From a virus, in IMG/VR virus record IMGVR_UViG_3300045988_175441, positions 9,959-73,958 of that record: 64,000 nt of DNA, one strand, 5' to 3'. Both the position numbers and the translations under genes were made by a program. This document shows, in pieces, positions 8,690 through 49,217 of this stretch (its first letter is position 1; every line of letters begins with the position of its first letter). The notes under the pieces are model-generated. The model saw nothing but the letters and a program-made list of their open reading frames with translations. It was not told the DNA's origin and did not search any database.

Positions 8690-8718
8690 TTGACATGAGT
8701 TTTTCATTATGGTATTAT
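8690..8718 (+). promoter_or_regulatory. parA promoter
   Basis: TTGACA (8690-8695), N17, then TATTAT (8713-8718) with TGG upstream (extended -10). Confidence 0.65.
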
Positions 8719-8731
8719 TAAATCGTGTTAA

Positions 8732-8749
8732 GTGATTATATTTTTGTGT
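8732..8749 (-). promoter_or_regulatory. ACACAAAAAnATAATC box (inverted orientation) between the parA promoter and its start
   Basis: GTGATTATATTTTTGTGT is the reverse complement of ACACAAAAATATAATCAC. Confidence 0.5.
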
Positions 8750-8776
8750 CTGATGATTATTTTTTGATTTATCTCA

Positions 8777-8792
8777 ACACAAAAAGATAACC
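8777..8792 (+). promoter_or_regulatory. ACACAAAAAGATAAC box (forward)
   Basis: ACACAAAAAGATAACC lies 30 nt upstream of the parA ATG. Confidence 0.5.
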
Positions 8793-8821
8793 ACAATCTT
8801 ATATTATTTCAGGAGTATATT

Positions 8822-9664
8822 ATGAAAGTTGTCACTGTCTCTTCCCTTAAAGGGGGAGTAGGGAAATCCGACCTCTCAACAATAATAGCCGATTTCCTTT
8901 CATACTATGGTAGGGTTTTATTGATTGACGCAAATCGTCAAGGAGACACGTCTAAACGGTTTATCTATCAAGAAAACGAAGAAGGAAAAACTGTTGATAT
9001 TTCTTCTGAGGAAAATCTCTTTGAAAATATCTTCCGTAAAAAGCCTGTTGTTCCTTTGACTGTCAAAGACAACCTTGACCTACTTGTAGCTACTAAGAGC
9101 TTGAAAGAGGTCGAAGCTCACGTTGAACACATGGAACGTAAAAGTCCACTTATCTTCAAACGCTGGCTTAAACGTTCTAAACTGAAAGACTACTACAAGT
9201 ATGTAGTGATCGACACTCACAATAGCGAAGGTATCTTGCTTGATAACTTCTACCTAGCTAGTGACCTGTTAATCGCAGTTGCAGGTTCAGGGCGTTGCGA
9301 AATGGACGGAGCTATCGGTGTATATGACCGTGTAGAAGCTCTTAAAAATGATGATAACCTTGTCAATGATGATGACGAGCCTATCATGAAAGCTAAAGTC
9401 GTCTTTGTTGGGAACTTGCTTAAGTCTGGTGGTGGTTCTCATGGCGTTACTGCTACAAATGAATACCTAGAACAGACCAAGGATAATGAACTATTCATTA
9501 CTAATATCTGGGAGCGTAACATTTTCCGTGACGCAAGCGCAGAAAACAAAACGGTTTTTGACATTATGAAGCGCTCTAAGTATCGTAATAAAAGTTTTGA
9601 AAAATACTTTGCCAAGCTACAAGAAAGCCTTGAAACAATCAAGCACGCTATTGACGTAGCATAA
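8822..9664 (+). CDS. parA: ParA/Soj-type partition ATPase
   Basis: Deviant Walker A at the N-terminus: SSLKGGVGKSDLS. 280 aa, followed by a small DNA-binding protein gene. Confidence 0.85.
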   Translation: MKVVTVSSLKGGVGKSDLSTIIADFLSYYGRVLLIDANRQGDTSKRFIYQENEEGKTVDISSEENLFENIFRKKPVVPLTVKDNLDLLVATKSLKEVEAHVEHMERKSPLIFKRWLKRSKLKDYYKYVVIDTHNSEGILLDNFYLASDLLIAVAGSGRCEMDGAIGVYDRVEALKNDDNLVNDDDEPIMKAKVVFVGNLLKSGGGSHGVTATNEYLEQTKDNELFITNIWERNIFRDASAENKTVFDIMKRSKYRNKSFEKYFAKLQESLETIKHAIDVA

Positions 9665-9678
9665 ATTAAACATATTTT

Positions 9679-9694
9679 GATTATCATTTTGTGT
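9679..9694 (-). promoter_or_regulatory. Box copy (inverted) between parA and the RHH gene
   Basis: GATTATCATTTTGTGT is the reverse complement of ACACAAAATGATAATC. A degenerate forward copy, ACACAATAGAATAATC, sits at 9722-9737. Confidence 0.45.
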
Positions 9695-9784
9695 TGGGAT
9701 ATTATTTTTATAATCATTTCAACACAATAGAATAATCTTGAAACACTATTTTATAATTCAGAAATTAAGAAAGAGGAAATTAAA

Positions 9785-10333
9785 ATGGCATTTAAACTAC
9801 CAACTAAACAACCTACTAAAACAAACAAGAGAATTGTCTTGGACGCTATTGATACAGACGAACCAACACCTGTTGAAGCTCCTAAGAAGAAAGTTGCTAA
9901 GAAACCTGCTAAAAAGAAAGCAGAAGCGAAGAAAGAGCCTGTTGTAGAAACTACAGAGCAGACCAACACTTTCTTCCATAAGCTCCAAATTAGTGAGCCT
10001 AAACATGAAAAACTTTCAACAAATATCTCAGACGCAAACTTGCGTAAGCTAGAGCGTCTGATTAAAGCAGGTTGCCAAAACAAATCTAAGGCAATCGGAG
10101 CAATCCTTGACGCTTTTGACGTGGATAAGGCTATTGAAGAACCTACATTCTTTGTAAAGAACACCATCACGAACGATTCACGCCACAATCGTCTCAATAT
10201 CTCCATGACACCTTCTCAACGTGAGAAGCTAATGCGTGTAGCTCATGCAGGACTTGGAAATATTGCCCTTGCGTTCTCATGTATCTTGAACGCCTTTGAC
10301 GTGGAAGAAGCCTTGAAGAATATGGAAGAATAA
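9785..10333 (+). CDS. Centromere-binding or regulator candidate: Lys-rich N-tail plus two tandem ribbon-helix-helix units in one chain
   Basis: Internal duplication: KLSTNISDANLRKLERLIKAG..KSKAIGAILDAFDVDKAIEE versus RLNISMTPSQREKLMRVAHAG..NIALAFSCILNAFDVEEALKN. Each unit follows a beta-strand, helix, helix pattern. Sits in the ParB/ParG position after parA. Confidence 0.6.
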   Translation: MAFKLPTKQPTKTNKRIVLDAIDTDEPTPVEAPKKKVAKKPAKKKAEAKKEPVVETTEQTNTFFHKLQISEPKHEKLSTNISDANLRKLERLIKAGCQNKSKAIGAILDAFDVDKAIEEPTFFVKNTITNDSRHNRLNISMTPSQREKLMRVAHAGLGNIALAFSCILNAFDVEEALKNMEE

Positions 10334-10359
10334 GCTAGATTATTTTCTAGCTTATTTTT

Positions 10360-10374
10360 ATTATCTTTTTGTGT
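10360..10374 (-). promoter_or_regulatory. Box copy (inverted) downstream of the RHH gene
   Basis: ATTATCTTTTTGTGT is the reverse complement of ACACAAAAAGATAAT. Confidence 0.45.
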
Positions 10375-10426
10375 TACTGGACACCTTTTTATGTGTTTAT
10401 GTATTATTTTTACGTTTTAAGAAATT

Positions 10427-10456
10427 AAAAAAACGTGTTATAAAACACGCTTTTTT
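10427..10456. terminator. Bidirectional terminator between convergent genes
   Basis: CGTGTT-ATAA-AACACG hairpin with an A-run on the left and a T-run on the right. Confidence 0.65.
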
Positions 10457-10832
10457 AATTCCCTGAAATAATCTTCCCTGTTGCTGAATCGAAGTCTATT
10501 TTCAGTTCTTTCAAATATTTCTTGACGGTTGGCTCTTGGACGTTGAGCGCCATAGCAATCTGAGCAACACTCTTAAAGCTACCCTTCTTAACACCTGCAA
10601 GTAAGGCTGTCTGTCGGTCAGATTTCCCCATAGATGATGATAAGCCCATGTTTGACTGAGCGTTCCGTAAACCTGTTCCTCTTGACGCTTCTCTTGAATA
10701 ATCGGCAATTTCTCTACTAGACATGACCTTACGCTCGCTTCTACGAGTGATGACGCTTGGATCATACGTTGTCACGACCTCGCCTGTACTTGTACTACTC
10801 TTTTTGAAAAAATCGTTAGGATTGTACCCCAT
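10455..10832 (-). CDS. Small protein with C-terminal helix-turn-helix
   Basis: C-terminus SVAQIAMALNVQEPTVKKYLKEL resembles a sigma-region-4/LuxR-type HTH. Confidence 0.55.
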   Translation of the reverse strand: MGYNPNDFFKKSSTSTGEVVTTYDPSVITRRSERKVMSSREIADYSREASRGTGLRNAQSNMGLSSSMGKSDRQTALLAGVKKGSFKSVAQIAMALNVQEPTVKKYLKELKIDFDSATGKIISGN

Positions 10833-10980
10833 TTTTTGAACTCCTTATTTTGTTTGAGACTATTTTATCATTTTTCGATAATTTTTTCAAGAATATTTTT
10901 TCTTAAAATGCTGATTTTTCAAAGGACTTTTGGTATAATAGTTGTGAATAATAATTTATTTTAACAAACAAAGGAGCAAC

Positions 10981-11232
10981 ATGGAAACAGAATACATTGA
11001 GAAATTGATTGAGTTTGCTTGTAACCGTATCATGACTGACCTGAAAGAAGGGAAGTTTACTGCCTACTTTATAGCGCAACAAATCGGTATTACTCGCAAG
11101 TCTGTCCTACACTTAGTAGAGAACGGTTGGGAGCAAGCACGATACAGTACGATTACTGGCTTGATTGAGTTTTACGAAAAACACTATGGAGTTATCAGTC
11201 TCCCTAAAACTGATGAAGATTACAAACTATAA
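10981..11232 (+). CDS. Small HTH protein (XRE-like)
   Basis: FTAYFIAQQIGITRKSVLHLVENG. Lies directly upstream of the coupling-protein gene. Confidence 0.55.
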   Translation: METEYIEKLIEFACNRIMTDLKEGKFTAYFIAQQIGITRKSVLHLVENGWEQARYSTITGLIEFYEKHYGVISLPKTDEDYKL

Positions 11233-11241: not shown

Positions 11242-13872
11242 ATGAGTTCCAAAAGTTCAAAGAAGAAAAAGAAAAAGAAACTACAGAGGTATTACAAGAA
11301 CGGTAAGAACGTTTATCCTTACGCAAAGGCTTCTAGGTTTTTGTGGGGTTCAGGATTTACCGTTACTATCCTTGCAGGGTTAATCGTAGCAACCCAACTG
11401 ATACTGTTCCTGTTACAAAAACTAGCCTTAATGATTCAGGGGGTAGTAGGATTTAATAGTAAGCTAGGTAAAAACCTAGACAACTTTATCTACATAAAAC
11501 TACCTTTGGGTGGGATTTTAAAACCCTTATTGGCTGTCCTGCTGTTTATTGTTCTTGCTTATCTGGTAACTATTGCCTTACGTCATCACGAAGGAGAACT
11601 ACAGCCCTTTAAAGACGATAACATGGCTAGAGCTATCCGTAGAGACGTTATCAAAAACCTAGAGCTAAACGTACTGGACTATGACGACAAAGGCAAGATC
11701 AAGAACTCTAAACAGGATATAAAAGCTCGTGAGATATTAAGACGTATGGCTATTGAAGTCCATACCAGAAAAGAAGTAAACGGAAGTGACTTTCTTTCAA
11801 TCGCAACCGTCAAGATCGAACGACCAAAAAACAAGGCTATCCGTAAAGTGCTTGAAGGCACGTTCTTTAAGGACTTACCTAGTGAGTTGACTTTTGCGAC
11901 AGAGGAGCTGTTTGCCTTCTCAGAACGCTTGACTGAAAAAGAGTTCTATTTCTTTGAAGCGAAGGCTATCGTAACCGAAGAATACGTCTATAAGATTGAG
12001 GAAGCGCAGAAGAAACTACAAGAAGCTCTTGGCAAAGGTAAAAAGTCTGGCAATGGTTCTGATGAAGTTGAAATTGTTGATACAGGTATTTTCACAAAAG
12101 AAAAAGCCTCTTGGGATATTGAGGTTCTGTACGATAAGAAACTACAAGAAAAGATCGAAGAACAAACCAAACTTGCAAATGAAGAAGTCGCAAACCTCTA
12201 TCTTTCACTTGAAACCTTTATCAGTTCTAACGAAAAAGTAAACCTGCAATTTGTTAGTATGAGAGCAACAAACTCTAACGCTCAATTTACTTACACGAAG
12301 CCAAAAGGTGTAAATAACATGGGTACAGAGCAGATGAAGGAGAACTTGGAAAGTGACTTGGGTAAGCAGGATATAAATATTACTCTAAGAGCAGGTCAGA
12401 TTATCATTCAGATTCCACTTGATAATAAGATTACTGCTGACGCTTACACCAACTTTATGAAAGCCTTTTTTGGCAAGAAAGACTTGCCACCACTACAAGC
12501 CTTAGTTGGGGTTGATACAGAAGGTGCACCAAGAACTTATGACCTTGCGACAGCTCCACATATCCTGACAGCAGGTACAACTGGTTCTGGTAAGTCGGTT
12601 GGTATCAACATGATTTATTTGTCTATCATCTTGCGTAATAGCCCTGATGTTGTTAAATTCATCATCATTGATCCGAAGAAAACAGAGTTTACACCTTACA
12701 AGCGAAGCCCTTATCTCTATACAGACGTTATTACAGATATGGACGGTGCTAAAAATGCCTTTAATGCTGTTGTAACTGAAATGGAGCGAAGAAATAGCTT
12801 GTTTGAGGAAATTGGGGTTCGTAATCTACAGACCTACAACCAGAAAGTATCTCCTGAAAAGAGAGAGCCTTACCTTATCCTGATTGCAGACGAGGTAGCA
12901 GACCTTATCATGACAAACGGAGACGAGGTAGAGGATTCAATGCAACGTCTAGGTCAAAAAGCCCGTTCAGCAGGTATCTTGATTCACATTGCAACTCAGA
13001 CACCACGAGCTGATATTATCAAGGGTAAAATTAAGGCTAACTTGCCTTCTCAGATTGTCTATAAGGTTGCTAACAGCATTGAAAGTGATATTGCGATTGG
13101 AGAATCAGGAGCAGAACGCTTGCTTGGTAAAGGAGACACTTACGTTAAGTGGTCGGATAACCCTAACCTTGTTCGTGTTCAAGGTGTATTCCTGACAGAT
13201 GAAAATATCAATGACATTATTGATTCAACGATTCAAAAATATCCTGATGAACGTTACTACAATGAACGTGTACCTATGGACGCTTTTGAAGATGGATTCA
13301 TCAAACCTAAAGAACTTGGGGATATTTCAAAAGGTTCAGTTTATCGCTACGCCATCAAGCACCAAAAAAGTCCTGTCATAGACGAGGACATGGACGAGCA
13401 GGACATAGTTATTCCTAGCCAAGAAAAGCCAAAGGGTACACCTGCTATTGCTTCTGCTCAACCTTACGAAACAACGAGTGTTCACAAAGAGAGTTTTGAG
13501 GAGTACAGGAAGCGTTATGAAGAAAAGAACGCCCAAACTGCCCTAGAGCTAGATGACATACTAGGCACTCGAAAGCGCAAAGTAGAAGCCTTGATAAACC
13601 AGATGAACCTTGATAAAGAAAAAGAACAGGAACAGGAGCAAGAAAAGGAAATTCCACAACTAGATCATGAGGTGGAAGAAGCGATTGAGGAACGTGTCTC
13701 ACATACTGAGCCTGAGCCTACAACACCTGTTGACAAGGAAGCTATTGCTAATGAACTCTATCCTGATGGCACTACTCCAACCGAAGAAGTGAAGAAGGAT
13801 AACTCAATCCTTCCTAAACCAATTCCGAAGGATTGGAAGTTCAGAAAAACTGGAAATAGAGGGAAAATGTAG
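11242..13872 (+). CDS. FtsK/SpoIIIE-family DNA translocase, putative conjugative coupling protein (TcpA/Orf21-like)
   Basis: N-terminal TM helices, Walker A AGTTGSGKSVGIN and Walker B YLILIADEVADL. 876 aa with an acidic C-tail. Confidence 0.8.
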   Translation: MSSKSSKKKKKKKLQRYYKNGKNVYPYAKASRFLWGSGFTVTILAGLIVATQLILFLLQKLALMIQGVVGFNSKLGKNLDNFIYIKLPLGGILKPLLAVLLFIVLAYLVTIALRHHEGELQPFKDDNMARAIRRDVIKNLELNVLDYDDKGKIKNSKQDIKAREILRRMAIEVHTRKEVNGSDFLSIATVKIERPKNKAIRKVLEGTFFKDLPSELTFATEELFAFSERLTEKEFYFFEAKAIVTEEYVYKIEEAQKKLQEALGKGKKSGNGSDEVEIVDTGIFTKEKASWDIEVLYDKKLQEKIEEQTKLANEEVANLYLSLETFISSNEKVNLQFVSMRATNSNAQFTYTKPKGVNNMGTEQMKENLESDLGKQDINITLRAGQIIIQIPLDNKITADAYTNFMKAFFGKKDLPPLQALVGVDTEGAPRTYDLATAPHILTAGTTGSGKSVGINMIYLSIILRNSPDVVKFIIIDPKKTEFTPYKRSPYLYTDVITDMDGAKNAFNAVVTEMERRNSLFEEIGVRNLQTYNQKVSPEKREPYLILIADEVADLIMTNGDEVEDSMQRLGQKARSAGILIHIATQTPRADIIKGKIKANLPSQIVYKVANSIESDIAIGESGAERLLGKGDTYVKWSDNPNLVRVQGVFLTDENINDIIDSTIQKYPDERYYNERVPMDAFEDGFIKPKELGDISKGSVYRYAIKHQKSPVIDEDMDEQDIVIPSQEKPKGTPAIASAQPYETTSVHKESFEEYRKRYEEKNAQTALELDDILGTRKRKVEALINQMNLDKEKEQEQEQEKEIPQLDHEVEEAIEERVSHTEPEPTTPVDKEAIANELYPDGTTPTEEVKKDNSILPKPIPKDWKFRKTGNRGKM

Positions 13873-15800: not shown

Positions 15801-16889
15801 TTAATAATATTTTGAGTTTTTTTGCACGTCATGAACAAGCTGTATCAAGCTGTGGTAGGCTTCTGCATTTTCTTCTTTAGCGTCAGTCAACTCCTGCGTT
15901 ACGCTTTCTACCCCTCGGCTTAGTAGATAGAGCTGTCCTAATTCGTTAAGAATACTGGTGTCTCCTTCTTCATGGATTGATTCAAGTCTAGCTTTTTCTT
16001 TCTCAACTACTTTTTTATAGTTGCCTAGAATCTCTAAGCATTGAGTGTGAGGTTTTAAAATGGTAAAATCTCCACCGTTCAAATAACTTTGATATTCTCC
16101 AAGTCCAAAATCACCTTCAAGCAATTCTCTGCCTAAAATCATAGCCATTAAAGAGTGGCTAGAAACAATTAGAAAACTTTTGCCTAAGTTTAATAGCTCC
16201 TGAATATAGTTTTCATGAGCTATTCTAAAATCTTTGTCATAACTCTTTGAAGATACATCAAACTCTAAAATATAGGTCATTCTGAATGAAGCATTACTTA
16301 ATTTACACCTTGAACCATCTATCTTAGATATAGCTTTTTCGATTGGAGCTTTGTATTCTTCTGGGAAAGGCGCTCTCTCAAATCCAAAAACGTCCTCTCC
16401 CTCTAGGATAAAATCCTCTAATTTTAGCAAGGGGTGCAACAGAAATATAGGGGAGTAAATCCTCACTTGCTCAATTTCTTCCAACATATTTTCAAGTTGG
16501 ATTGCACCTGTACTCTTTACTTTGTCTCGTAGGTTCTCTAAGACTATCTCGTTGAACCTTATATTCGATTGATTGATTACTACAGCCTTGATGACGGTTG
16601 AAAAATAATCACGAAAAGCACGAAAATCTGACTGGCTATTGATAGTTTTACTTTTCGCCATTAAAACGATCATCAGGTCATTTTCGCTTTGTGAACCACT
16701 AACCAAGTCAAGCCTTCTCCATTGGCTATTCAATTCTTGGCTTTGACTTTCTGTTAGTACATTTTCTAAAGTCGCTTTTATTACGTCCAGTCTGCGTATG
16801 GCATCAAAATACATAGCAGTATGTTCAAATACATTGTAGGTTTCTTTTTGAAGCCTTTGAGTATATTCAACCTGAGTTTCCGTCAACAT
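15801..16889 (-). CDS. Paralogue family member 1 (362 aa, most divergent)
   Basis: Starts MLTETQ like its neighbours. Shares PEEYKAPIEKAISKI and ARLESIHEEGD..ILNELGQL blocks with them. Confidence 0.7.
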   Translation of the reverse strand: MLTETQVEYTQRLQKETYNVFEHTAMYFDAIRRLDVIKATLENVLTESQSQELNSQWRRLDLVSGSQSENDLMIVLMAKSKTINSQSDFRAFRDYFSTVIKAVVINQSNIRFNEIVLENLRDKVKSTGAIQLENMLEEIEQVRIYSPIFLLHPLLKLEDFILEGEDVFGFERAPFPEEYKAPIEKAISKIDGSRCKLSNASFRMTYILEFDVSSKSYDKDFRIAHENYIQELLNLGKSFLIVSSHSLMAMILGRELLEGDFGLGEYQSYLNGGDFTILKPHTQCLEILGNYKKVVEKEKARLESIHEEGDTSILNELGQLYLLSRGVESVTQELTDAKEENAEAYHSLIQLVHDVQKNSKYY

Positions 16890-16910
16890 ATTAGACTTCC
16901 CCCTGTTTTA

Positions 16911-18011
16911 TTAGATTCTAGCCACTTCTAGCAATTTTTCTTTCAGAACTGTCAAACACTCCAAGTAATAACGAGGACACATTTCTGCCATTTTTAACAC
17001 AGTTTCCAGTTGATAGGCAAGTGCGCTAAGTGTTTCAATACCAATATCAAACTTACTGTCATTTTTTTCTTCACGTTCTGCTTCTAAACGTTGGAGTTCT
17101 TTTTTTGTAGATTTGTATAATGATTCAAGTTCATTTGCGTTAGTTCTGTATGACAACATAAACTTGTCATGTTCTGCGTTTAAAGTTAATTTTGCAAAGA
17201 CAAAAATACTACTTTGTCCATTGATAAGACGCTCAATTTTTTCACAAATTACTTGAATATCACTACATACCGTTGAACTTTCCTGATTTACCTTTTGGAT
17301 AGTGGCGTAAGAATTACTGTAGGCATTTTTAAAATCTTTTGAATAGATTTTATCTTGAAGGTCATCTTCTGAGGGCATATTCTTAGTGGCAACATAGGCA
17401 AGCTCCATATCATTATACACCTCTCTCATGCTCTTAGAAATGGCTTCAAACTCAGGATTGTATTTATCAGGGATAGCATAATCAGGGTAATCAAAAAATG
17501 GTCGTAGTCCTTCAATATCACTTTCTAGTTCTACCAAAGGCGTAATAATGTTGTTATTAAGAACACCAAACATTTCAAATAACTCTGTCAGGTTATTTGA
17601 TAAGTATTCTTTTGCGTCCGTACCATCAACCCTTTTCAAAACATCTTCAACTATTTCAATGTTTTCGTTAAGATTTTTACGAGTTTCATAGACTTTATTT
17701 AATACCTCTGAATAGGTAAGGCGTAAATCAGAATAATCTAGTTTACTTGTGAGAAAATGGGCTTTTTGCCTTAATTCGTCAATATAATTATTTACCTTAT
17801 TGAGATTAGTTGGTGCGATTGCAGTATTTTTCCATTTAATATACAATTCTGCTAATAATTTATCCTTATCTTCTTCAAATAACAATGAGTGCTTAAAACA
17901 ATCTGGGTAAAGAAGAAGTTTATAAAAATAATCGTCATTACTAATATCTACTAGTCTTTTAAAAGCACTTGCTAACTCTTGGATTTTTTCTTCTTGTTGT
18001 TCAGTAAGCAT
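16911..18011 (-). CDS. Paralogue family member 2 (366 aa)
   Basis: Collinear similarity to 18044..19159 by eye, for example TVCSDIQ and KKELQRLEAEREEKNDSKFDIGIETL. Confidence 0.75.
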   Translation of the reverse strand: MLTEQQEEKIQELASAFKRLVDISNDDYFYKLLLYPDCFKHSLLFEEDKDKLLAELYIKWKNTAIAPTNLNKVNNYIDELRQKAHFLTSKLDYSDLRLTYSEVLNKVYETRKNLNENIEIVEDVLKRVDGTDAKEYLSNNLTELFEMFGVLNNNIITPLVELESDIEGLRPFFDYPDYAIPDKYNPEFEAISKSMREVYNDMELAYVATKNMPSEDDLQDKIYSKDFKNAYSNSYATIQKVNQESSTVCSDIQVICEKIERLINGQSSIFVFAKLTLNAEHDKFMLSYRTNANELESLYKSTKKELQRLEAEREEKNDSKFDIGIETLSALAYQLETVLKMAEMCPRYYLECLTVLKEKLLEVARI

Positions 18012-18043
18012 AATTTTACTCTACTTTCTTTCCTGTATATCCT

Positions 18044-19159
18044 TTAGACAATCCCTTGCTCTAGCAACTCTTTACTTGCTACAGTCAAGTTGGCTTTCAA
18101 TGCTGTTAAGTTGTTCATGTAGTGGTAAGGGCATTTTTCTGCCATTTCAAGAATACTGTTGAGCTGACGAACTAACAAATTGATTGTCTCAATCCCTTCA
18201 TCAAGTTTGCTATCTTTCTTTTCCTCACGTTCTGCTTCTAGGCGTTGAAGCTCTTTTTTAGCAGAATGAAGGAGTGGTTCAAGCTCTTTTGCATGGTTTC
18301 TATACGATACGATCATTTCGTCATAGTTTGCACTTGCAAATGAACCTACAAAGTCATAGACACTACTTTCTCCGTCCAAAAGACGTTTGATACGTTCACA
18401 AAGACCTTGAATATCTGAGCATACAGTCAAACTAGTTTGTTCTACGCTCTGAATAGTTGAATTAGCAACGCTATAGGCAATAAAGAAGTCGTCAGAAAAA
18501 ATAGTTTTGTTCAGGTCATCTTCCTGTGGCGCGTGTTTTGAAGCGTTGTAAGCAATAACCATATCGTTATAAACTCCACCTAGACACTCAGAAACAGTTT
18601 CTACTGCTGTTCGGTATTTCTCAGGTAGGTTGGAAGGAGCAAGGTCAAAGCTCTCTTGAATTTTTACAATTCCCCCTTCCAAACCAAGCAACGGTGCAAT
18701 AATACTATTGTTTAAAATTTCGTAGATACCATGTAATGTTTGAAGGCTTTGCGTAATTCTTGCTCTAGTATCTTCAACATAAACGTGTTTTAAAGTTTCA
18801 TTGACTTTCTCAATGTTCGCAAGCAAGTTCGCTCGGATTTTGTAAAGTTGATCCGTGGTATCTAAATATTGCAAACGGAAGGAAAGGTAGTCTGCATTGG
18901 TACGGATATAGGCAACTTTGTTAGCTAAGTCTTGAATAAGTTCATCTCCACTATCCAAAGATGGATAAAGAGAATCATTTTTCCAGTTTTCTTCTAGTTC
19001 ATCTGCTAAATCTTCCTTTCCACCATCACGCAAAGCCCAAAGGATTTCATCTGGGAACATACACGTCTCAGAATGGTATTTATCCTCTACAATTATTGCA
19101 ATGTTACGAAAAGCTCCTGCTGTCTCATAAGCAAAGTCTCGTTGTTTTTCACTTAACAT
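18044..19159 (-). CDS. Paralogue family member 3 (371 aa)
   Basis: See 16911..18011. Contains KKELQRLEAEREEKKDSKLDEGIETI and MAEKCPYHY. Confidence 0.75.
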   Translation of the reverse strand: MLSEKQRDFAYETAGAFRNIAIIVEDKYHSETCMFPDEILWALRDGGKEDLADELEENWKNDSLYPSLDSGDELIQDLANKVAYIRTNADYLSFRLQYLDTTDQLYKIRANLLANIEKVNETLKHVYVEDTRARITQSLQTLHGIYEILNNSIIAPLLGLEGGIVKIQESFDLAPSNLPEKYRTAVETVSECLGGVYNDMVIAYNASKHAPQEDDLNKTIFSDDFFIAYSVANSTIQSVEQTSLTVCSDIQGLCERIKRLLDGESSVYDFVGSFASANYDEMIVSYRNHAKELEPLLHSAKKELQRLEAEREEKKDSKLDEGIETINLLVRQLNSILEMAEKCPYHYMNNLTALKANLTVASKELLEQGIV

Positions 19160-19403: not shown

Positions 19404-19557
19404 TTGCACAACCGAAAACTGGGGTTTGCACAACCGAAAACTGGGGTTTGCACAACCGAAAACTGGGGTTTGCACAACCGAAAACTGGGGTTTGCACAAC
19501 CGAAAACTGGGGTTTGCACAACCGAAAACTGGGGTTTGCACAACCGAAAACTGGGGG
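19404..19557 (+). repeat. Replication-origin iterons: 7 head-to-tail copies of a 22-bp unit
   Basis: TTGCACAACCGAAAACTGGGGT repeated at 19404, 19426, 19448, 19470, 19492, 19514 and 19536. The last copy ends in G. No spacers. Lies 200 bp upstream of the rep gene. Confidence 0.9.
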
Positions 19558-19759
19558 TTTTTCGTAATAATATAACTAAAATTATGCTAGTTGGCATAAA
19601 CAAAGGGAGCAAAAACGTTTTAAATTATATAAATACAAGCGATTATAGACAAAAAGCGTATAAAAAATAAAAAAAGTTAAACAACTTATAACTAAATGGT
19701 TGTTATCTTTTAGAAAATGTTATATACTAGGTTCGTAAATACAAGGAAAGATGATTATT

Positions 19760-21100
19760 ATGAGTGAATTAACAGAAAAAACAAACGAATTAGTGGAGAA
19801 TCAGTCTGTTACAGATTTAATTGATAAGCAGAGAAACATTCTTGCTAAGAGTAAAATTCTAAAGCTATCTAACCTAGCAAATAGAATGACACCAATCCAG
19901 AATGCTATTTTCTCTTTAGCCTTACGAAATGTAGTAATTGATGGGGATAGAGCTATAACAGAAGTTCAGGTATCAGAACTCCTAGAATTGATTAAAAGTT
20001 CTGAGTATAGCAAATTCAACAGAACAGCAATCAATAGAGATAAAAAAGCTATACAAGAAAACCATATCAATCTAATTGATGAAAAATTCTATGACAATGA
20101 TCCAAATGGAAAATCAATATCAATAGGACTTTTTAGCTATTTTGAATATGAGCGAGGAAAGTTTATAGGAGTATTTAATTCTACTCCTGACCGTAAAGGA
20201 AAGACACCTATTCTTGATATTTTAAAATCTCAGGAAGTAAATCCCTTGATGTATAACCTTAATACATTTTCAAAGTTATCTCCATCAGGTCAAATGTTAT
20301 ACGAGGAGCTTTTAATTTTTAGTGGACAGAATATTCGGTCTGCAAAATATGATATTGAAGGGTTGAAACAGTTGTTTAAGTCTAACGGAAAATCCATGAA
20401 CCGTTACTACACTATCAATCAAAAGCACCTAAAAGGAGCGATTGAAGATATTAACAAATATACTGATATGGACTTAGTTGTTAAACCTGTAAAAGAAGGG
20501 CGAGCTGTTACTGGGATTGAATTAGTCTGGTCTATTGATAAGATTAAGTTGCAGGCTACTGAAGATCAACGTAAGACGCTACATGAATTGTATGTTCAAC
20601 TTAAAAAACTAGAACCTACCTCAAAAGAAGATTTGTCTTTATTGTATAGACTTGAAAATCCTCACTTGGTAAGTAAACAGGAAGCGCAAGGGCTTATTTC
20701 GATAGCTATTGGACGAGTAAGAAGTTTAGCTATTGAACAACAACCTGCACTACCAAGTGTTCCAGAGAGAAAAGTAGTTGCTGATGTTGAGAAAGTAAAA
20801 GAGTTGTTCCCAAGTGTGGAGAAAAGACAACTTAATCTAGTTGCTACAACTATGCAGGACTTTCCAGAGGAAGAACAGGACGCTATCTTAGAGTATGCTT
20901 TGTTTTTAGGTAAACATAATAACGCTAGAAGCGTGAAATATATCCTACACCTTCTTAATGGTTGGTTTATCGAGGGGATAAAAACAAAAGCTCAAGCAGT
21001 TGCCCTTCACGACCAAAACTACGGAGAACCCCTACCAGATGTTAGCAAGATAGAAATTTCAGATGAATTTAGAAATGCTATGGACTTATGGAAGGACTAA
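19760..21100 (+). CDS. rep: Theta-type replication initiator (RepB/Rep_3-like N-domain, DnaD-like C-terminal domain)
   Basis: Position beside the iterons. N-terminal LAKSKILKLSNLANRMTPIQNAIFSLAL pattern and C-terminal AILEYALFLGKHNNARSVKYILHLLNGWFIEGIKTKAQA (DnaD/DnaB_2-like). ATG at 19760 is better spaced from AAGGAAAG than 19751. Confidence 0.7.
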   Translation: MSELTEKTNELVENQSVTDLIDKQRNILAKSKILKLSNLANRMTPIQNAIFSLALRNVVIDGDRAITEVQVSELLELIKSSEYSKFNRTAINRDKKAIQENHINLIDEKFYDNDPNGKSISIGLFSYFEYERGKFIGVFNSTPDRKGKTPILDILKSQEVNPLMYNLNTFSKLSPSGQMLYEELLIFSGQNIRSAKYDIEGLKQLFKSNGKSMNRYYTINQKHLKGAIEDINKYTDMDLVVKPVKEGRAVTGIELVWSIDKIKLQATEDQRKTLHELYVQLKKLEPTSKEDLSLLYRLENPHLVSKQEAQGLISIAIGRVRSLAIEQQPALPSVPERKVVADVEKVKELFPSVEKRQLNLVATTMQDFPEEEQDAILEYALFLGKHNNARSVKYILHLLNGWFIEGIKTKAQAVALHDQNYGEPLPDVSKIEISDEFRNAMDLWKD

Positions 21101-23143: not shown

Positions 23144-23199
23144 CCACACGATTATAAAATGCGACAACACAAAGAATAATCGGAAGGTAGAGAAATTTA

Positions 23200-25860: not shown

Positions 25861-25912
25861 TGCCCTTATGTCAAAAAAATAATCAAACGACACAAAAAAA
25901 TAATACAAATAC

Positions 25913-25989: not shown

Positions 25990-26130
25990 ATGTCACTAAG
26001 AAATATTATTGATTCAACAGTTGCAGGACTTTTGGCAGTAAGTGTGAAAAATGCAGGAGACGGATATAAGAAGTCTAGCCATAAGTCTATTGTGGCGAAT
26101 AAGCCGATTAAGAAAGATTGGAGTAAATGA
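25990..26130 (+). CDS. Small protein, 46 aa (below the ORF-track cutoff)
   Basis: ATG after an A/G-rich SD-like stretch. Encodes MSLRNIIDSTVAGLLAVSVKNAGDGYKKSS.... Its stop is 1 nt from the next start. Confidence 0.4.
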   Translation: MSLRNIIDSTVAGLLAVSVKNAGDGYKKSSHKSIVANKPIKKDWSK

Positions 26131-26131
26131 A

Positions 26132-26440
26132 ATGAGAGAGTTATTATCTAAAATTTGGTATTATGGAACGTTGCCTATTTGGTGGTTCTTTACCTTCATC
26201 ACGTCAGACGTACTGACTAATATTTTCTGGGGTGGAGCTATCATTGGTGGGTTCGTGTTCTTGCTAACCTATAAAACAACTTATGAATGGTTGATATTTT
26301 CGTTTATGTGTGTATGTTGTGCAGGGGGTATGTGGTTCGCAGGTGTCTTCTATGGATTCTTGGGTAAAATCATAGTACGATTGATCCGTATTGTTCAAGG
26401 TTGGATTGACGGTGTTGACTATTCAGAATATGACGTTTAA
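26132..26440 (+). CDS. Small polytopic membrane protein, 102 aa
   Basis: ATG at 26132 lies 8 nt after GGAG. About 3 hydrophobic helices. The track start at 26051 has no SD. Confidence 0.6.
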   Translation: MRELLSKIWYYGTLPIWWFFTFITSDVLTNIFWGGAIIGGFVFLLTYKTTYEWLIFSFMCVCCAGGMWFAGVFYGFLGKIIVRLIRIVQGWIDGVDYSEYDV

Positions 26441-26454
26441 TAAGTAAAAGTAAA

Positions 26455-26482
26455 AGTCGCTCATAAGAGAGTGGCTTTTTTA
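26455..26482 (+). terminator. Rho-independent terminator
   Basis: AGTCGCTC-ATAA-GAGAGTGGCT (with G:U pairs) followed by T6. Confidence 0.55.
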
Positions 26483-26600
26483 TTGCTCTAGGCTAGAAAA
26501 ATCAAGATAAATCGCAAATTTAATACACAAAATCATAGTAAAGTAAAAAAACTATGGTATAATTAAGTAATGATAATAAAATGTTATTGAGGAGGATATT

Positions 26601-26840
26601 TTGGAACATAAACCAAAGGTTACGATAGCTCAAAGGTGGATTTTATCAGAGTTAGAAAAGCATAAAGAAATGACCTTAAAAGAGTTGATGAAAGTAACGG
26701 AGATTAAAGAGACAACTTTGAAAGTCTATCTTAGTCGCTTGATTCAACAGGACTTAATAGTATCTATCCGAATTAGTGGAGAAGAAACTAAATACACGGT
26801 CAAGAAAGGAAAGAAATCAGATGGGAAAAAAGAAAGTTAA
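26601..26840 (+). CDS. Winged-helix transcriptional regulator-like protein, 79 aa (TTG start)
   Basis: GAGGAGG lies 5 nt before the TTG. Contains MTLKELMKVTEIKETTLKVYLSRLIQQDLI. TGGTATAAT promoter at 26555-26563. Confidence 0.55.
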   Translation: MEHKPKVTIAQRWILSELEKHKEMTLKELMKVTEIKETTLKVYLSRLIQQDLIVSIRISGEETKYTVKKGKKSDGKKES

Positions 26841-27918
26841 AGAAAAGTACAAACAACTAAAAGCTAAAGAAAACACGATAGCTGAAATTGAAAAGGTAAG
26901 CGAGCAGGAAGAAACGAAGCATAATTTCTTATACAAGTGTCGCTCATTCTTAGGTCAGACGTTTAACTTAAAGACGAAGCGTGGCAAGATTCTTGCTTTT
27001 GGGCTGACAGCTTGGTTATCAATGGCAATAGGATTCGCTTTATCTAACTATGTGCAGACAGGGAACACGGTAGGGGGAACAGTCGCAACTTACAAAGGGG
27101 GCTATATCCGAGGACGGAAGCTGTACGAATACTACAAGAACTCCCTAGAAGGTTCAAACCTAGTTAAGACTACGCTTTTGTACCAGACTTTCGGTGCGCT
27201 TTATGGCGATAAAATCACAGATGAAGAAATTGAAACAGCACTACCGAACTACCGAAACGCAGGACTAAAGACTTTATTTGAAAAAGGAGACAGTACAGAG
27301 AGTATCAAAACTCTAGTACGTCAACAACTAGCCTTGCAGTATGGATTGAAAACCAATATTGATGTAACCCAAGAAGAAATGGCTGAACGTTGGGAAACCT
27401 TCCACCCTAAAATGAAAGTCCAGATGGTATTAGTGGCAGATGAAGCGCAAGCGAATGATATTGCTACACAGTTAGGTCAGGGAGTTAAGATTGACAATTT
27501 CCTTAAAATGGATCAATCAGGACTGAACGGACAAACAGCAACTATCAAGTCTAACACAGAGCAACTTTCTAGCGAGGAGCTAAAACAACTCCAAAGCACC
27601 AAAGAAGGGGGAGCTACAGTTATTGAAAAAGACAACGTAGCACCAGACGGTTCAATCGTTAAAACCTACTATGTGTTTAAGGTATTAGAAAACCCTGCAA
27701 AGGGCGAAAATATGGAAAGTTGGACTGATGAACTTAAAGAGCAGATTCAGGAAGATAAAGTCCGTATTGGTTTAGGTCAGAAACAAGCGTCCGAAGAAGA
27801 AGTTGCAAAGAATACTAAGGCAGTCAAAGACGCTATCAAGTCTGTATTTAAAGAGCAGGACGTAAGAGTAACTGACGACTACATGAAAAAAGCACTTGCT
27901 GATTATCTAGGAGAGTAA
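26821..27918 (+). CDS. PrsA/SurA-like foldase (membrane-anchored chaperone or PPIase-like)
   Basis: TM after a basic N-terminus. The layout YYKNSL..TLLYQTFGALYGDKITDEEIETAL..LVRQQLALQYGL..VTQEEMAERWETFHPKMKVQMVLV resembles PrsA N-terminal and parvulin-border regions. Confidence 0.5.
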   Translation: MGKKKVKEKYKQLKAKENTIAEIEKVSEQEETKHNFLYKCRSFLGQTFNLKTKRGKILAFGLTAWLSMAIGFALSNYVQTGNTVGGTVATYKGGYIRGRKLYEYYKNSLEGSNLVKTTLLYQTFGALYGDKITDEEIETALPNYRNAGLKTLFEKGDSTESIKTLVRQQLALQYGLKTNIDVTQEEMAERWETFHPKMKVQMVLVADEAQANDIATQLGQGVKIDNFLKMDQSGLNGQTATIKSNTEQLSSEELKQLQSTKEGGATVIEKDNVAPDGSIVKTYYVFKVLENPAKGENMESWTDELKEQIQEDKVRIGLGQKQASEEEVAKNTKAVKDAIKSVFKEQDVRVTDDYMKKALADYLGE

Positions 27919-27921
27919 CGA

Positions 27922-28275
27922 ATGGGTATTTTTAAAAAAGTTAAAAAGAAAATTGACAATACGTTTGATGAAGATACATTACAGAATGACGTATCAAGTG
28001 GAGCGCTAGAAAAAGGCTCTATTCTTTGGGGATTGAGAGCTACAGTCATTGGTACAAAGAGTGTATTGAACGAGGTTGTCGGAAGGACAGTAACGGTTGC
28101 GAACAATGAACGAGATAAGATTATCAACCAACAAGAACCTCAACGACCTCAACCAGAAATTAAAAAGCAGGTTCAAGAGCCTGTAGCCCCTCAAAGCTCA
28201 GATATGTCAGAGTATGACGAATTTGAAGAATGGAAGAAATTTCAAGCTATGAAGCGAGGAAAGGGGAATGAATAA
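27922..28275 (+). CDS. Hypothetical protein, 117 aa
   Basis: ORF in the operon. No motif recognised. Confidence 0.55.
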   Translation: MGIFKKVKKKIDNTFDEDTLQNDVSSGALEKGSILWGLRATVIGTKSVLNEVVGRTVTVANNERDKIINQQEPQRPQPEIKKQVQEPVAPQSSDMSEYDEFEEWKKFQAMKRGKGNE

Positions 28276-29156
28276 TGGCAAACGAGGTACAAGAATACCA
28301 ACAAGTCCAAGAAAACGAATTTGACGTTATTGAAATCCCAAAGGGAGATTGGACTGGGGAAAGTCTAAAACATGGTTTGGTAAACTCGTATTTCTACTTT
28401 GATATTTTCAAAAACCTAACCAATGGTAAGCCTATTAAAATTTTGTGGGCTGGGTTCTCCTTGATGTTAGTCTTTGCGACAATTTTCATGGCAACTCTAG
28501 CCTTCCAATGGACTTCTACAGTCTCAGTTTTTAGTGGTATTATTTCTGCAATCCTCGTAAGCATAACGCTTCTTTGGTTGGCATGGTTGAATATCAAGCC
28601 TTCTAGCGATACAACTTTATTGATTGATAGTATCCGTACTTTCTTTTACTTGGTAAAATCAAAACCAAGCCTGAACAACCTACGTTTTAAAGCGCAGGTC
28701 AAGGGAAATCAGATTGTTTTTGATAACGGTAAGAGCTATGGAGAGGTTTATGTGGTAGAGGGTGTAGTCAACAAGTCCATGCTTTCAAGAGACTTAGTTG
28801 CTATCTACACAGACCTTGAAAACTTACTACCCAACTTGGGAGAAGTCACAATGATCCAATCAAGCCAGATTGAACGTGTTGAGTTTACTAGTTTGAAAGA
28901 ACACTATAGAGAAATCAGACAGAACCCTAACAGTACGAAGTTGCAGAAGAAGTTGGCTCAGATTAAGAACCGACGTGTAGTTGATGACTTAAAGAATGAG
29001 TTGACGCAGAAGGAAGTTGTATTCTTTGTAGCAAACAAGGAAGAAGAACTATCAAAGGGCAGACAGTTTTTGAGGTCTGCTTCTGAAAAAGGGGTTATCG
29101 CAAGCTATGCGCCTATCTCACAAAAGAACCTAGAAAGGATATTAGATAGACTATGA
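28275..29156 (+). CDS. T4SS-associated membrane protein, 293 aa
   Basis: Two TM helices (LMLVFATIFMATLAFQW and VFSGIISAILVSITLLWLAWL). Translationally coupled on both sides. Confidence 0.6.
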   Translation: MANEVQEYQQVQENEFDVIEIPKGDWTGESLKHGLVNSYFYFDIFKNLTNGKPIKILWAGFSLMLVFATIFMATLAFQWTSTVSVFSGIISAILVSITLLWLAWLNIKPSSDTTLLIDSIRTFFYLVKSKPSLNNLRFKAQVKGNQIVFDNGKSYGEVYVVEGVVNKSMLSRDLVAIYTDLENLLPNLGEVTMIQSSQIERVEFTSLKEHYREIRQNPNSTKLQKKLAQIKNRRVVDDLKNELTQKEVVFFVANKEEELSKGRQFLRSASEKGVIASYAPISQKNLERILDRL

Positions 29157-31081
29157 AATCTATTGTTAAAGAATATGCCCTAGACTATCTAATCAATGGG
29201 CGCTATAGAAAGTATTTGTATGTGTTTGCCCCTTACGGACGAGGACTACAAATGCAGGCAGAAGATATTATCAATCTCAAAGGCTTCCCTGTTATCTCAG
29301 GCTGTACGGTAACAACATGGAATAAGCTCCAACTCCTAAAACCAGAAGAATATCGTAAGGAAATGAAAGGTTTAGCCAATCTGGTTAAGGTCAACGACCA
29401 AGACTTGCCAGACGGTGGGCTTGCAGGAGATATTAAGTGGGCTACGAATCGTCACAGCGCCATGTATCTTGCTGAACAGTCTGACGACAAAATGTCAGGT
29501 GGCTTGTATGTTTGGGAAATCGTTGTTACAGCTCTTTCCAGAGAGAAGTTGGATCGCCAAATTGAAGTTATCCTAAACCGTTGGGGTGGGGTTGATAACT
29601 ATATCAGTAAGAAATACAACCCTATCCAATACTTTGAATTGGTTGATACAGTAGGAACTAACAAGTACAAGCGAGGAATTTTATTCAATCCTCTAATCGT
29701 TACTGAGAAAGTGAACACTACTACGCTAGAGAACTATGCGAAGTTGTGTTTCTTCCAACGAACTACGCTACAAGATGAATTAGGAGAAGAATTTGGATAT
29801 GATTTTCTAGCTCCTTCTCAGATTGGGGAAGATGGCAACTCTAAATATCCAAAAGTCCTAATTGACGCAAAGAACTACCTCAACAAACTAGGTATTGTAG
29901 CAATACCACGCTCATTTTCACGCTTTGATTATGTCTTTAAGGACGTTTATCAAGATGAAGCAGAGACTATTAAGAAACCTCAGTCACTAGCGAGCGTAAC
30001 AAGTCAGCAAGTGGCTAATCAATTCTTGATGGAAGGTAAGAAAGTAGTCCATATCGTCCTAAATGACTTTGACTACTTTAAATTAGAAACCCCTCATAAT
30101 CGAGACACTAAGCAGTTCCAGAATACGATTATCGAGGAAACGCAGATTATTGATGGCTCACGAATTAGTATCAATCCATTACAGCCTTTTGCGAAGAACA
30201 GAACGGAAGAAAAGGAAGAAGAAATCCCTGCTTATGGTCGCTCTAAGAAGAAATTTAATACCATTATCCAAACCTTGATTTACTACCAAGGCGAAGATAC
30301 AGGGATAGTTGATGAAGTCTTTGACGAGCTGATGGAAAATGAAGCGCTTTGGAACAGAGATAATGACGTGATGGTTGACCGTAGGAACTATCTGCAACAA
30401 CCTGCAAGTAAATATCCTGCTTTTGACCGTGCTATCACGCGCTTTGAGACCAAAGAAGCTAACCTACGCAGGGATATGAAGATTGATGAAGCAAAAGAAG
30501 TCGCTCAGATTAAGAGACGACTAGAGAGCTTCTTGACGAATAATAGGTCGCTGATTGGTTCTAAGACAACCCTTGAATTAGACGAAAGCAAGGTCAACTA
30601 CTACATACGACTAGACAAACTTGATACTCTACAGAAAAATATTCAGGTTATCAATCTAGTTGACTTTGTGACAGAGTTCTTAGGAGCAGGAGACCTGATG
30701 ATTATTCACGGTGCAGAGGTTTTAGATGTCCGAACTTATGAGTATCTAGCTGAACAGTTTGAGCGTACCTATGATAAGAAGGTGCGAGTGCTATTGAGTT
30801 ATGACGTTACGGATTCATTGAAACCAAGCACGAAGAACTCTTTAGGTTCATCTAACGTATTTACTCTTACTAAGCGCCTGTATGAAGAATTTAACACAGG
30901 GGTTGACTGGTCGTTCGTAGGTCGTATGAACAATTCAAGGAATTACGAGCAGTTAGTAAAGGCTGAACTCCCAACAACAACAAAGGTTGATATTGAATTT
31001 GAAGGGGGAGTAGGACGTGCCTTATTCAATCGTCCTGCAACAAGATCATTTTACTTGATAGGAGTTAAACCGATATGTTAA
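29153..31081 (+). CDS. Large soluble T4SS-cluster protein, 642 aa; possible degenerate VirB4-like protein (no P-loop seen)
   Basis: Occupies the position and roughly the size of Gram-positive VirB4 (TcpF/Orf16). I find no GxxxxGK[ST] motif anywhere in it. Confidence 0.35.
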   Translation: MKSIVKEYALDYLINGRYRKYLYVFAPYGRGLQMQAEDIINLKGFPVISGCTVTTWNKLQLLKPEEYRKEMKGLANLVKVNDQDLPDGGLAGDIKWATNRHSAMYLAEQSDDKMSGGLYVWEIVVTALSREKLDRQIEVILNRWGGVDNYISKKYNPIQYFELVDTVGTNKYKRGILFNPLIVTEKVNTTTLENYAKLCFFQRTTLQDELGEEFGYDFLAPSQIGEDGNSKYPKVLIDAKNYLNKLGIVAIPRSFSRFDYVFKDVYQDEAETIKKPQSLASVTSQQVANQFLMEGKKVVHIVLNDFDYFKLETPHNRDTKQFQNTIIEETQIIDGSRISINPLQPFAKNRTEEKEEEIPAYGRSKKKFNTIIQTLIYYQGEDTGIVDEVFDELMENEALWNRDNDVMVDRRNYLQQPASKYPAFDRAITRFETKEANLRRDMKIDEAKEVAQIKRRLESFLTNNRSLIGSKTTLELDESKVNYYIRLDKLDTLQKNIQVINLVDFVTEFLGAGDLMIIHGAEVLDVRTYEYLAEQFERTYDKKVRVLLSYDVTDSLKPSTKNSLGSSNVFTLTKRLYEEFNTGVDWSFVGRMNNSRNYEQLVKAELPTTTKVDIEFEGGVGRALFNRPATRSFYLIGVKPIC

Positions 31082-32070: not shown

Positions 32071-32091
32071 AAAAGAAAGGAGAGCTTAATT

Positions 32092-45674: not shown

Positions 45675-45777
45675 ATAGATAACTCCCAGAGGAGCAGTTC
45701 CTTTGGGGTTTATTTTTAGACAACACGAAAAAATAATACATGAGTACAAAAAAATAATCAAAAAATCATAAAAAGTG

Positions 45778-49031: not shown

Positions 49032-49201
49032 AAGAAGAAAATAGCAAGCTAGTATTTGCTATCATTGTGCTTGCGTCTCTACTACTTTCTGTTTATCTAT
49101 CTGCTGTTGTGGTAGCTGTTGTAAAAGATGTATCAATTACAACAGTTATCCATAATTGGCAGTCAGGAGCGCTTGATTTTTTGAAAAGCCTGATTGAGTA
49201 G
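49028..49201 (+). CDS. Small membrane protein, 57 aa
   Basis: ATGA overlap with the preceding stop. Contains LVFAIIVLASLLLSVYLSAVVVAVV. Below the ORF-track cutoff. Confidence 0.45.
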   Translation: MKEENSKLVFAIIVLASLLLSVYLSAVVVAVVKDVSITTVIHNWQSGALDFLKSLIE

Positions 49202-49217
49202 AAAGGAAAAAATATTT

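Follow-up and report, generated by a model that had tools for sequence, protein, structure and literature searches.

The window analyzed here, a 64,000-nucleotide (nt) stretch of IMG/VR record IMGVR_UViG_3300045988_175441 (positions 9,959 to 73,958), carries a putative partition (par) locus in which parA, encoding a small Walker-type ATPase, is followed directly by a gene of no recognized family, orf182 (Table 1). An earlier reading made without database searches (the sequence-only reading) had proposed that a 15-16-nt box brackets these two genes, recurs upstream of most promoter cassettes of the replicon, and is bound by the orf182 product as a single-chain protein with two ribbon-helix-helix (RHH) units. 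The Walker A motif of ParA (KGGVGKS, residues 10-16 of 280) lies at the extreme N-terminus, the AAA_31/CbiA domains begin at residue 1, and there is no N-terminal DNA-binding helix-turn-helix (HTH) domain, as is characteristic of type Ib partition ATPases. The closest NCBIfam model was PrgP (1e-11, far under the PrgP cutoff), identity to any ParA in PLSDB was at most 30%, and megablast matched the par-region DNA to nothing in PLSDB or INPHARED. In type Ib systems the centromere-binding protein, not ParA, is the autorepressor. The small gene directly 3′ of parA that typifies these systems is also present, with a predicted RHH fold and in a gene order kept in the three clades of relatives described below. 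The deviation from type Ib is that two RHH units lie within one orf182 chain instead of in a homodimer.

Three clusters of boxes frame parA and orf182 and have one common layout (<- <- ->) with gaps of 5 and 6 nt; in cluster 3 the box at 10359 is followed by degenerate units reaching 10417. The boxes of cluster 1 lie at approximately +8 to +66 relative to the putative parA promoter, and the repeat array at the par promoter thus sits in an operator-like position. Among 18 non-identical clade A relatives, conservation of cluster 1 was 0.84-0.91 in the boxes versus 0.51 and 0.72 in the intervening spacers, and the parA promoter had a mean conservation of 0.895 (18 unique sequences). A type Ib centromere-binding protein that is also an autorepressor would require a layout of this kind, which here lies in the central region of the element ~9 kb from the seven iterons of rep.

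The box itself is significantly enriched. On both strands of the window 24 copies of ACACAAAAARATAATC were found with up to 3 mismatches, whereas 100 dinucleotide-preserving shuffles contained 4.53±2.05 (maximum 10), and the recurrence claimed by the sequence-only reading therefore withstood a significance scan. A position weight matrix (PWM) returned 19-25 matches versus 0.9-2.4 expected, figures that are indicative only because the matrix was trained on the same sites. None of the 24 matches fell within a long open reading frame (ORF), making the boxes strictly intergenic. The information in the box lies in two conserved parts, ACAC(A) and ATAAT(C/A); the 1-2 positions separating the A-tract from ATAAT are free, and most of the PWM information resides in the non-A-tract positions (ACAC, TAATC). 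Each site listed earlier was present, with offsets of no more than 1-2 nt, and mapping confirmed the spread of boxes over the replicon both at the par genes and at promoters. Boxes overlooked in that list are the degenerate middle units at 8755 and 9700 and the partner boxes at 25869 and 61004. No known RNA accounts for the repeats, since an Rfam scan of the whole window matched zero families.

Outside the par locus all boxes in the window are on the plus strand and mostly form direct pairs with a start-to-start spacing of exactly 21 nt. Tandem Repeats Finder independently reported 21-nt periods at 9706 (9706-9757, in par cluster 2), 55451, 60982, 62112 and 63655. The pairs precede consensus TTGACA-17-TGTATAAT promoters, spanning about -44 to -80, and the gap between the proximal box and the -35 element is either 7-8 nt (six cassettes) or 18 nt (two cassettes), values that are one helical turn apart. 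The cassettes are strikingly alike: a G+C hairpin terminator comes first and is followed by the boxes, TTGACA, 17 nt and TGTATAATATAA, and a conserved leader and a ribosome-binding site (RBS) complete the unit. The earlier statement that most promoter cassettes carry boxes was slightly generous: 8 of ~13 strong plus-strand promoters have them, and four strong cassettes (40547, 47530, 50891 and 52414), located upstream of a SNF2-like helicase, SSB, a non-specific endonuclease and small ORFs, do not. The absence at 50891 and 52414 is common to two relatives (L025 and L026), which cover these two cassettes. These box-less cassettes show the box to be separable from the promoter and not a mere part of it, and they may form a second, differently controlled gene set.

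Comparison of window 60930-61095 with four relatives (L024-L027) revealed that the homologous stretch starts precisely where box 1 does, at its 5′ edge; upstream of this edge the sequences and genes are unrelated. Because homology starts at this edge, the terminator-box-promoter-leader cassette appears to be a unit of recombination, and the alignment suggests a module that shuffles the small genes of the arms. T4-type phages reportedly contain comparable "mobile regulatory cassettes," the PeSL of Arbiol, Comeau and Krisch (2010). These share a terminator hairpin and promoter module ahead of many small variable genes, with homology breaking at the cassette edge. Unlike PeSL, the cassette described here adds operator-like boxes common to the par locus, and the element is not a recognizable phage. 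In addition to the promoter-associated pairs, a promoter-less array of 8-9 units, which comprises the several degenerate copies listed earlier at 63565-63700, is located at the right end of the window, ~250-430 nt from the element end and within its terminal inverted repeat. This array is conserved in L024-L027, and a strict 21-nt register holds for its last four units, each starting with ACAC. It is the best candidate for a centromere-like (or end-organizing) site.

Table 1. Features of the par locus, box sites and initiator gene in the 64,000-nt window. Arrows give box orientation; a dot marks an entry without strand.
Feature	Position	Strand	Remarks
Putative parA promoter, TTGACA-17-TATTAT with upstream TG	8690-8718	+	11/12 consensus positions; best of the region
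par cluster 1, three boxes (<- <- ->)	8734-8792	mixed	Between parA promoter and RBS, operator-like
Box	8734-8749	-	par cluster 1
Box, degenerate	8755-8770	-	par cluster 1
Box	8777-8792	+	par cluster 1
parA, small Walker-type partition ATPase, 280 aa	8822-9664	+	AAA_31 (2e-20), CbiA
par cluster 2	9679-9737	mixed	Between parA and orf182
Box	9679-9694	-	par cluster 2
Box, only A-rich/TAAT half retained	9700-9715	-	par cluster 2
Box	9722-9737	+	par cluster 2
orf182, putative centromere-binding protein/regulator	9785-10333	+	Two predicted RHH units
Terminator hairpin (10326-10359), then par cluster 3	10326-10417	.	Hairpin foot is start of cluster 3
Box	10359-10374	-	par cluster 3
Box unit, degenerate	10402-10417	-	par cluster 3
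rep, Rep3_C/DnaB_2 initiator gene	19751-21100		
Single 15-nt box, one A shorter	23167-23181	+	18 nt 5′ of ATG of 876-aa cell-wall hydrolase gene
Box pair 25869/25890	25869-25905	+	7 nt 5′ of TTGACA (25913), promoter of long operon 26051-38482
Box pair 45723/45744	45723-45759	+	18 nt 5′ of -35, cassette 45778
Box pair 55456/55477	55456-55492	+	7 nt 5′ of -35, cassette 55500; operon includes ProQ-like gene
Boxes 59565, 60263/60284, 60983/61004, 62110/62131, 62622	59565-62637	+	Five promoter cassettes, small unknown genes downstream
Array of 8-9 units, 21-nt period, no promoter	63580-63755	+	Includes boxes 63580/63601/63672

Metagenome assemblies were the only source of orf182 relatives, which lay on contigs of 60-90 kb and fell into three clades: clade A (~45 clusters with at least 75% identity), clade B (~20 clusters, ~38-46% identity) and clade C, one further group. 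A further match from the exhaustive representative search (P0056) was a spurious repeat protein and was discarded. The synteny of parA and orf182 and the entire neighborhood are kept in all three clades. The predicted DNA-reading strands of the two RHH units differ, being KLSTNIS and RLNISMT in clade A, PLSARIS and PFNVKLT in clade B, and PLSVIIS and RLNLKLT in clade C. The par boxes differ as well: in clade B the box is TACAAAACGTAATT, with exact copies 5′ of parA and 5′ of the orf182 homologue, and in clade C it is CACACAAATATAATT, present in two copies 21 nt apart.

Co-variation of the par and distal boxes was compared in clade B at two distal positions, in loci extending beyond the hydrolase gene. 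The clade B box TACAAAACGTAATT recurs on the plus strand of five loci (L028-L031 and L062) at the equivalents of window positions 23167 and 25869/25890. It heads a three-unit 21-nt array 5′ of the hydrolase gene and also lies upstream of the TTGACA promoter of the next operon. In one of these loci (L028), 3 matches with no more than 1 mismatch were present versus 0.14±0.35 expected. The clade A form of the box occupies the same two distal places, including the hydrolase position, in the clade A locus L033. In the clade A and clade C loci examined TACAAAACGTAATT was not found, and the window had one match with 2 mismatches. This co-variation is the strongest sign that one element-encoded factor reads both the par and distal boxes and that its specificity has evolved with the element. 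The exact clade A 16-mer was also used to search IMG/VR. Loci with at least 2 copies came without exception from human oral and HMP-numbered samples. Of the 14 contigs with an orf182 homologue, 9 belong to this multi-copy set; contigs outside the set had single, chance-level matches.

The orf182 protein contains the internal duplication that had been noticed from its translation. The local alignment score of the internal repeat was 91, as compared with 23±4.6 (maximum 55) for 1000 shuffles. The N-terminus carries a conserved peptide, FxLPTxQP. In the full-length AlphaFold2 model a short N-terminal segment and disordered Lys-rich residues 19-58 (predicted local distance difference test [pLDDT] <50) precede two strand-helix-helix units, in agreement with the earlier description of a Lys-rich tail and two such units. 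Modelled alone, residues 60-182 gave a pLDDT of 84.2 and a predicted template modelling (pTM) score of 0.76, with the layout h-E-H-H-h occurring twice. The only two β-strands (residues 75-82 and 133-141) were both assigned as sheet and therefore pair with each other within one chain. On these models orf182 is an intramolecular RHH pseudo-dimer, and the paired strands in one chain place it in the single-chain double-RHH fold class.

The only credible Foldseek matches in the PDB were F-plasmid TraY (relaxosome chains E, F and G; TM-scores 0.5-0.65, identity 6-13%), DndE, MJ0366 and VirC2 (2rh3; rank 13, TM-score 0.41, E 1.3). The top matches in BFVD were 95-120-aa RHH proteins of Sulfolobales (archaeal) viruses. 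As a fold the single-chain tandem RHH is not new, and VirC2 and MJ0366 presumably have it. F TraY (PMC12117103) and DndE (PMC10853773) are documented single-chain double-RHH proteins. Thus the models support the fold class of orf182, and membership of the TraY, DndE, VirC2 or MJ0366 families is not supported. Searches of orf182 against Pfam, NCBIfam and PHROGs returned no match, protein and profile queries against PDB sequences yielded chance matches only, and a scan of GTDB representative genomes found no relative.

The analysis shows the motif with its geometry, the class of fold, the synteny and the co-variation between clades; that orf182 binds the boxes, represses promoters and acts in partition is what we infer. 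The reading that we favor, with modest confidence, makes orf182 the centromere-binding protein that works with the small, type Ib-like ParA; as a covalent RHH pseudo-dimer it would read the boxes as partition sites and operators. Among the candidates orf182 is the likeliest putative box reader. One molecule of orf182 would read one asymmetric, oriented 16-bp box (ACAC, A-tract, ATAAT), and the 21-bp spacing, corresponding to two helical turns, would align the molecules on one face of the DNA. Oriented boxes would thereby give a "train" resembling the train of two direct copies and one inverted copy of TraY on oriT. The <- <- -> clusters around parA and orf182 would serve as autoregulatory operator and partition site, and the promoter-less 21-nt arrays near each element end as further partition or end-organizing sites. 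The box pairs 5′ of the -35 would tie the genes downstream to the level of orf182, most economically by repression, as with ω and KorB. Repression is the economical reading because consensus promoters such as these (TTGACA, 17 nt, extended -10) should require no activator. The genes proposed to be under this control are the cell-wall hydrolase, the long operon at 26-38 kb and many small genes of the arms. The conserved N-terminal peptide and the Lys-rich linker may contact ParA and non-specific or minor-groove DNA.

Several observations weigh against this assignment. The two conserved halves of the box are ~10 bp apart and one β-ribbon cannot read both; the Lys-rich linker might occupy the A-tract minor groove, or two molecules might bind each box. 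The box centers, at approximately -51.5/-72.5 or -62.5/-83.5, would fit an activator too, and the fixed spacing between box and -35 could have been inherited through cassette duplication and not selected. The nearest structural analogues, TraY and VirC2, are DNA-transfer accessory factors and not partition proteins. Foldseek E-values were weak (3e-4 to 1.3, at 6-18% identity), and the alignment underlying the AlphaFold2 models was shallow (33 sequences in 3 clades). Finally, all element-encoded proteins differ among the clades, and co-variation does not single out orf182.

This last point bears on the alternative that the boxes are real but have another reader and that orf182 binds elsewhere, which we consider unlikely. 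The candidate readers are the neighboring 125-aa HTH protein (10455-10832, minus strand) and 83-aa protein (10981-11232), one of the two FtsK-like ATPases, for which the boxes would be polar guides or clt-like sites, and a host protein. The HTH, 83-aa and FtsK-like genes are syntenic, are conserved in the three clades and co-vary like orf182; the FtsK-like gene lies ~0.9 kb 3′ of orf182, and the non-par boxes all point from the element center to the nearer end, like polar translocase guides. Such an orientation bias, however, is automatic from co-oriented cassettes, and the boxes are intergenic and in fixed promoter-side pairs, unlike KOPS/SRS-type motifs. Pfam found no FtsK gamma or winged HTH domain, and the divergent promoter region of the HTH genes (10833-10980) contains no box, as compared with the three clusters framing parA and orf182.

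It is distinctly improbable that parA and orf182 instead form a VirC1/VirC2- or TraY-like transfer module whose boxes are overdrive- or oriT-like sites recruiting DNA to an FtsK-type translocase. The structural neighbors TraY and VirC2 are relaxosome or transfer accessory proteins (PMC12117103; PMC8406263), ParA had sub-threshold VirC1 matches (16.9 bits in Pfam, cutoff 24), an 876-aa FtsK/SpoIIIE ATPase is encoded ~0.9 kb downstream in the same orientation, and the two direct copies and one inverted copy of TraY resemble the <- <- -> clusters. Nevertheless, no relaxase or VirB4 was recognized among the ~60 ORFs scanned, an oriT context was not found either, dozens of promoter-side sites would make a poor oriT and fit a regulator better, and the central location near the rep iterons and the sign change of GC skew is a maintenance context. 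Transfer and partition roles could coexist, not being mutually exclusive. That the promoter boxes are UP-element-like or curved A-tract DNA of a duplicated cassette, with no dedicated protein and an incidental resemblance to par, is very improbable: the boxes are A-tract rich, phased at two turns and located at about -44 to -80, the zone of UP elements and curved DNA, in cassettes that are clearly homologous copies with inter-relative homology from box 1, but the non-A-tract ACAC and TAATC are the most informative positions, four cassettes of equal strength lack boxes, the par boxes are 3′ of the promoter and inverted, an 8-9-unit array has no promoter, and the clade-specific variant occurs at par and distal sites alike.

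Two model plasmids are known to encode a partition protein with a second role as global regulator, ω in inc18 and KorB in RK2 (the KorB/IncC system), and the orf182 system, if the favored reading is true, would be a third, structurally different solution. It would be unusual in that the reader is a covalent, intrinsically asymmetric RHH pseudo-dimer and the sites are oriented 16-bp boxes in helical phase. The analogy to ω and KorB drawn by the sequence-only reading holds for function and not for kinship, as orf182 belongs to neither family (no Pfam or NCBIfam match) and the site architecture is different. In RHH ParB proteins, binding to promoter-overlapping parS repeats is combined with global regulation (PMC9499535). 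The ω/δ system of inc18 plasmid pSM19035, in the way proposed for the locus described here, pairs a small ParA with an RHH centromere-binding protein having a flexible N-terminal tail, and its short repeats are both parS and operators at several promoters, coupling partition to global regulation (PMC9499535). However, ω has 71 aa and forms a homodimer, whereas orf182 carries two diverged RHH units in a single chain; the sites of ω consist of 7-10 contiguous 7-bp heptads instead of a 16-bp box with 21-bp spacing and usually 2-3 copies; ω controls 3 promoters, as compared with at least 9 sites and end-proximal arrays; and ω forms a helical filament on its contiguous heptads, whereas the arrangement proposed for orf182 is a train. 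No match of orf182 to the ω family (Omega_Repress) was found in Pfam at E≤0.1, and the repeat unit of 16 bp with a 21-bp period is not the WATCACW heptad array read by that family.

KorB of IncP-1 plasmid RK2 is both a ParB and a long-range silencer, acting replicon-wide from scattered operators, some of them directly 5′ of the -35 (PMC11790492). KorB is an HTH protein and a CTP-dependent sliding clamp with palindromic OB sites and the co-repressors KorA and TrbA, whereas orf182 is predicted to be an RHH protein with no Pfam or NCBIfam match to the ParB/KorB CTPase and HTH domains. In F TraY a single chain forms the RHH pseudo-dimer, and two molecules in direct and one in inverted orientation line up on the DNA (PMC12117103). 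It was among the best solved-structure matches, and it resembles orf182 in placing a whole RHH pseudo-dimer in each polypeptide and in having asymmetric sites. TraY is, however, a relaxosome accessory factor at oriT with ~10-bp sites, and it lacks a ParA partner, a Lys-rich tail and the conserved N-terminal peptide; orf182 had no Pfam TraY match and no sequence similarity to TraY (7-13% identity in the structural alignments). DndE has an obligate DndD/CxC ABC-ATPase partner and a Dnd gene neighborhood (PMC10853773). The neighbors of orf182 are parA, HTH genes and the FtsK-like gene, and no Dnd or ABC ATPase domain was present among the scanned ORFs.

VirC1/VirC2 of the Agrobacterium Ti plasmid combines a ParA-like ATPase with a partner in the double-RHH class matched by Foldseek (2rh3), and is to our knowledge the only pairing of a ParA-like ATPase with a single-chain double-RHH protein; the DNA-binding domain of VirC2 is said to be a single-chain RHH (Lu et al., 2009). 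We know of no centromere-binding protein of this build. VirC2 binds overdrive beside the T-DNA borders and promotes transfer, having no role in partition or promoter control, and the low rank of 2rh3 and the sub-cutoff VirC1 score do not place orf182 in its family. ParG/ParF/parH of TP228, a type Ib system, has an RHH centromere-binding protein that is also the autorepressor and a centromere of short degenerate boxes with AT-rich spacers (PMC3130281), comparable to the arrangement proposed here. TP228-type systems use a homodimeric RHH protein and sites only at the par locus, with no replicon-wide promoter set.

The replicon itself looks linear with terminal inverted repeats, judging from contig ends, and the word plasmid used in the sequence-only reading needs this qualification; the record is filed in IMG/VR as viral. 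In four full-length relatives in IMG/VR (76-86 kb) the two ends are inverted copies of each other, identical over 1514, 1569, 2628 and at least 2758 nt, and a circular plasmid was dropped as an explanation on account of such ends. The window stops ~170-450 nt before the corresponding contig ends, so that approximately its last 1.5 kb lies inside the terminal inverted repeat. One contig (L075, 13100-13348, just past window position 64000) reads through the tip, which consists of the G+C-rich motif GGCAGACGGACTGCGCAA, a ~190-nt A+T-rich segment and the inverted motif. The ~190-nt segment occurs in both orientations among contigs (flip/flop-like), and the tip folds as a long imperfect hairpin (ΔG -86 versus -26±3.4 kcal/mol, z = -17.6). 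These features of the tip suggest covalently closed hairpin telomeres. Pfam scans of the ~60 ORFs found no telomere resolvase, relaxase or VirB4.

Seven perfect tandem 22-nt iterons, TTGCACAACCGAAAACTGGGGT, are located at 19404-19556, ~200 nt 5′ of rep, and this region is likely the replication origin. Clade C has different iterons in the equivalent place (L008, 16231-16634). GC skew changes sign in the par/rep region and genes point outward in both arms; one relative has 22 boxes within 14 kb of its other arm, all oriented to the end of that arm. The phage label implied by the listing of the contigs as viral in IMG/VR was rejected because of the Rep_3-type initiator with iterons, ParA, FtsK-like ATPases, LPXTG adhesins and the lack of PHROG matches (ten proteins without a match). 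Approximately 80% of the element genes have no family match. A literature search found no paper describing this ~80-kb element, and it appears to be an undescribed mobile element of human oral metagenomes. We propose, as a doubtful and tentative extension, that one asymmetric double-RHH protein organizes a family of undescribed ~75-90-kb linear, hairpin-ended replicons of human oral Firmicutes by marking the par operon, coating phased 21-bp arrays beside both telomeres and silencing dozens of consensus promoters in the two arms. If true, a double-RHH system would couple partition, end organization and global transcription, with a box-promoter cassette doubling as a recombination module for arm shuffling, and would present a case of a regulated promoter cassette acting as a gene-shuffling unit. 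Hundreds of protein clusters and contigs of 60-90 kb attest to the abundance of the replicon in human oral metagenomes, yet no relative of it has been cultured or annotated; the box map offers a concrete, testable regulon map of an element that is otherwise opaque.

The FtsK/SpoIIIE-family ATPases of the element are 876 aa (11242-13872) and 509 aa (49194-50723) in length and are present without a recognizable relaxase or VirB4, which raises the possibility of double-stranded DNA transfer. The 876-aa protein had weak matches to plasmid TraB and EssC models. In a homologue search with the 509-aa protein the best 120 matches were all from clade A; one homologue (P0101), labelled Listeria monocytogenes at NCBI, is probably a contamination or misassignment. 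Between par and rep, three adjacent ORFs of 362, 366 and 371 aa (15801-19159, minus strand) had no Pfam or PHROG match, and their copy number differs by clade, L007 and L008 having a single copy. Two small ORFs are separated by a perfect (AAGC)x18.5 microsatellite (58264-58337), which could be a slipped-strand phase-variation tract.

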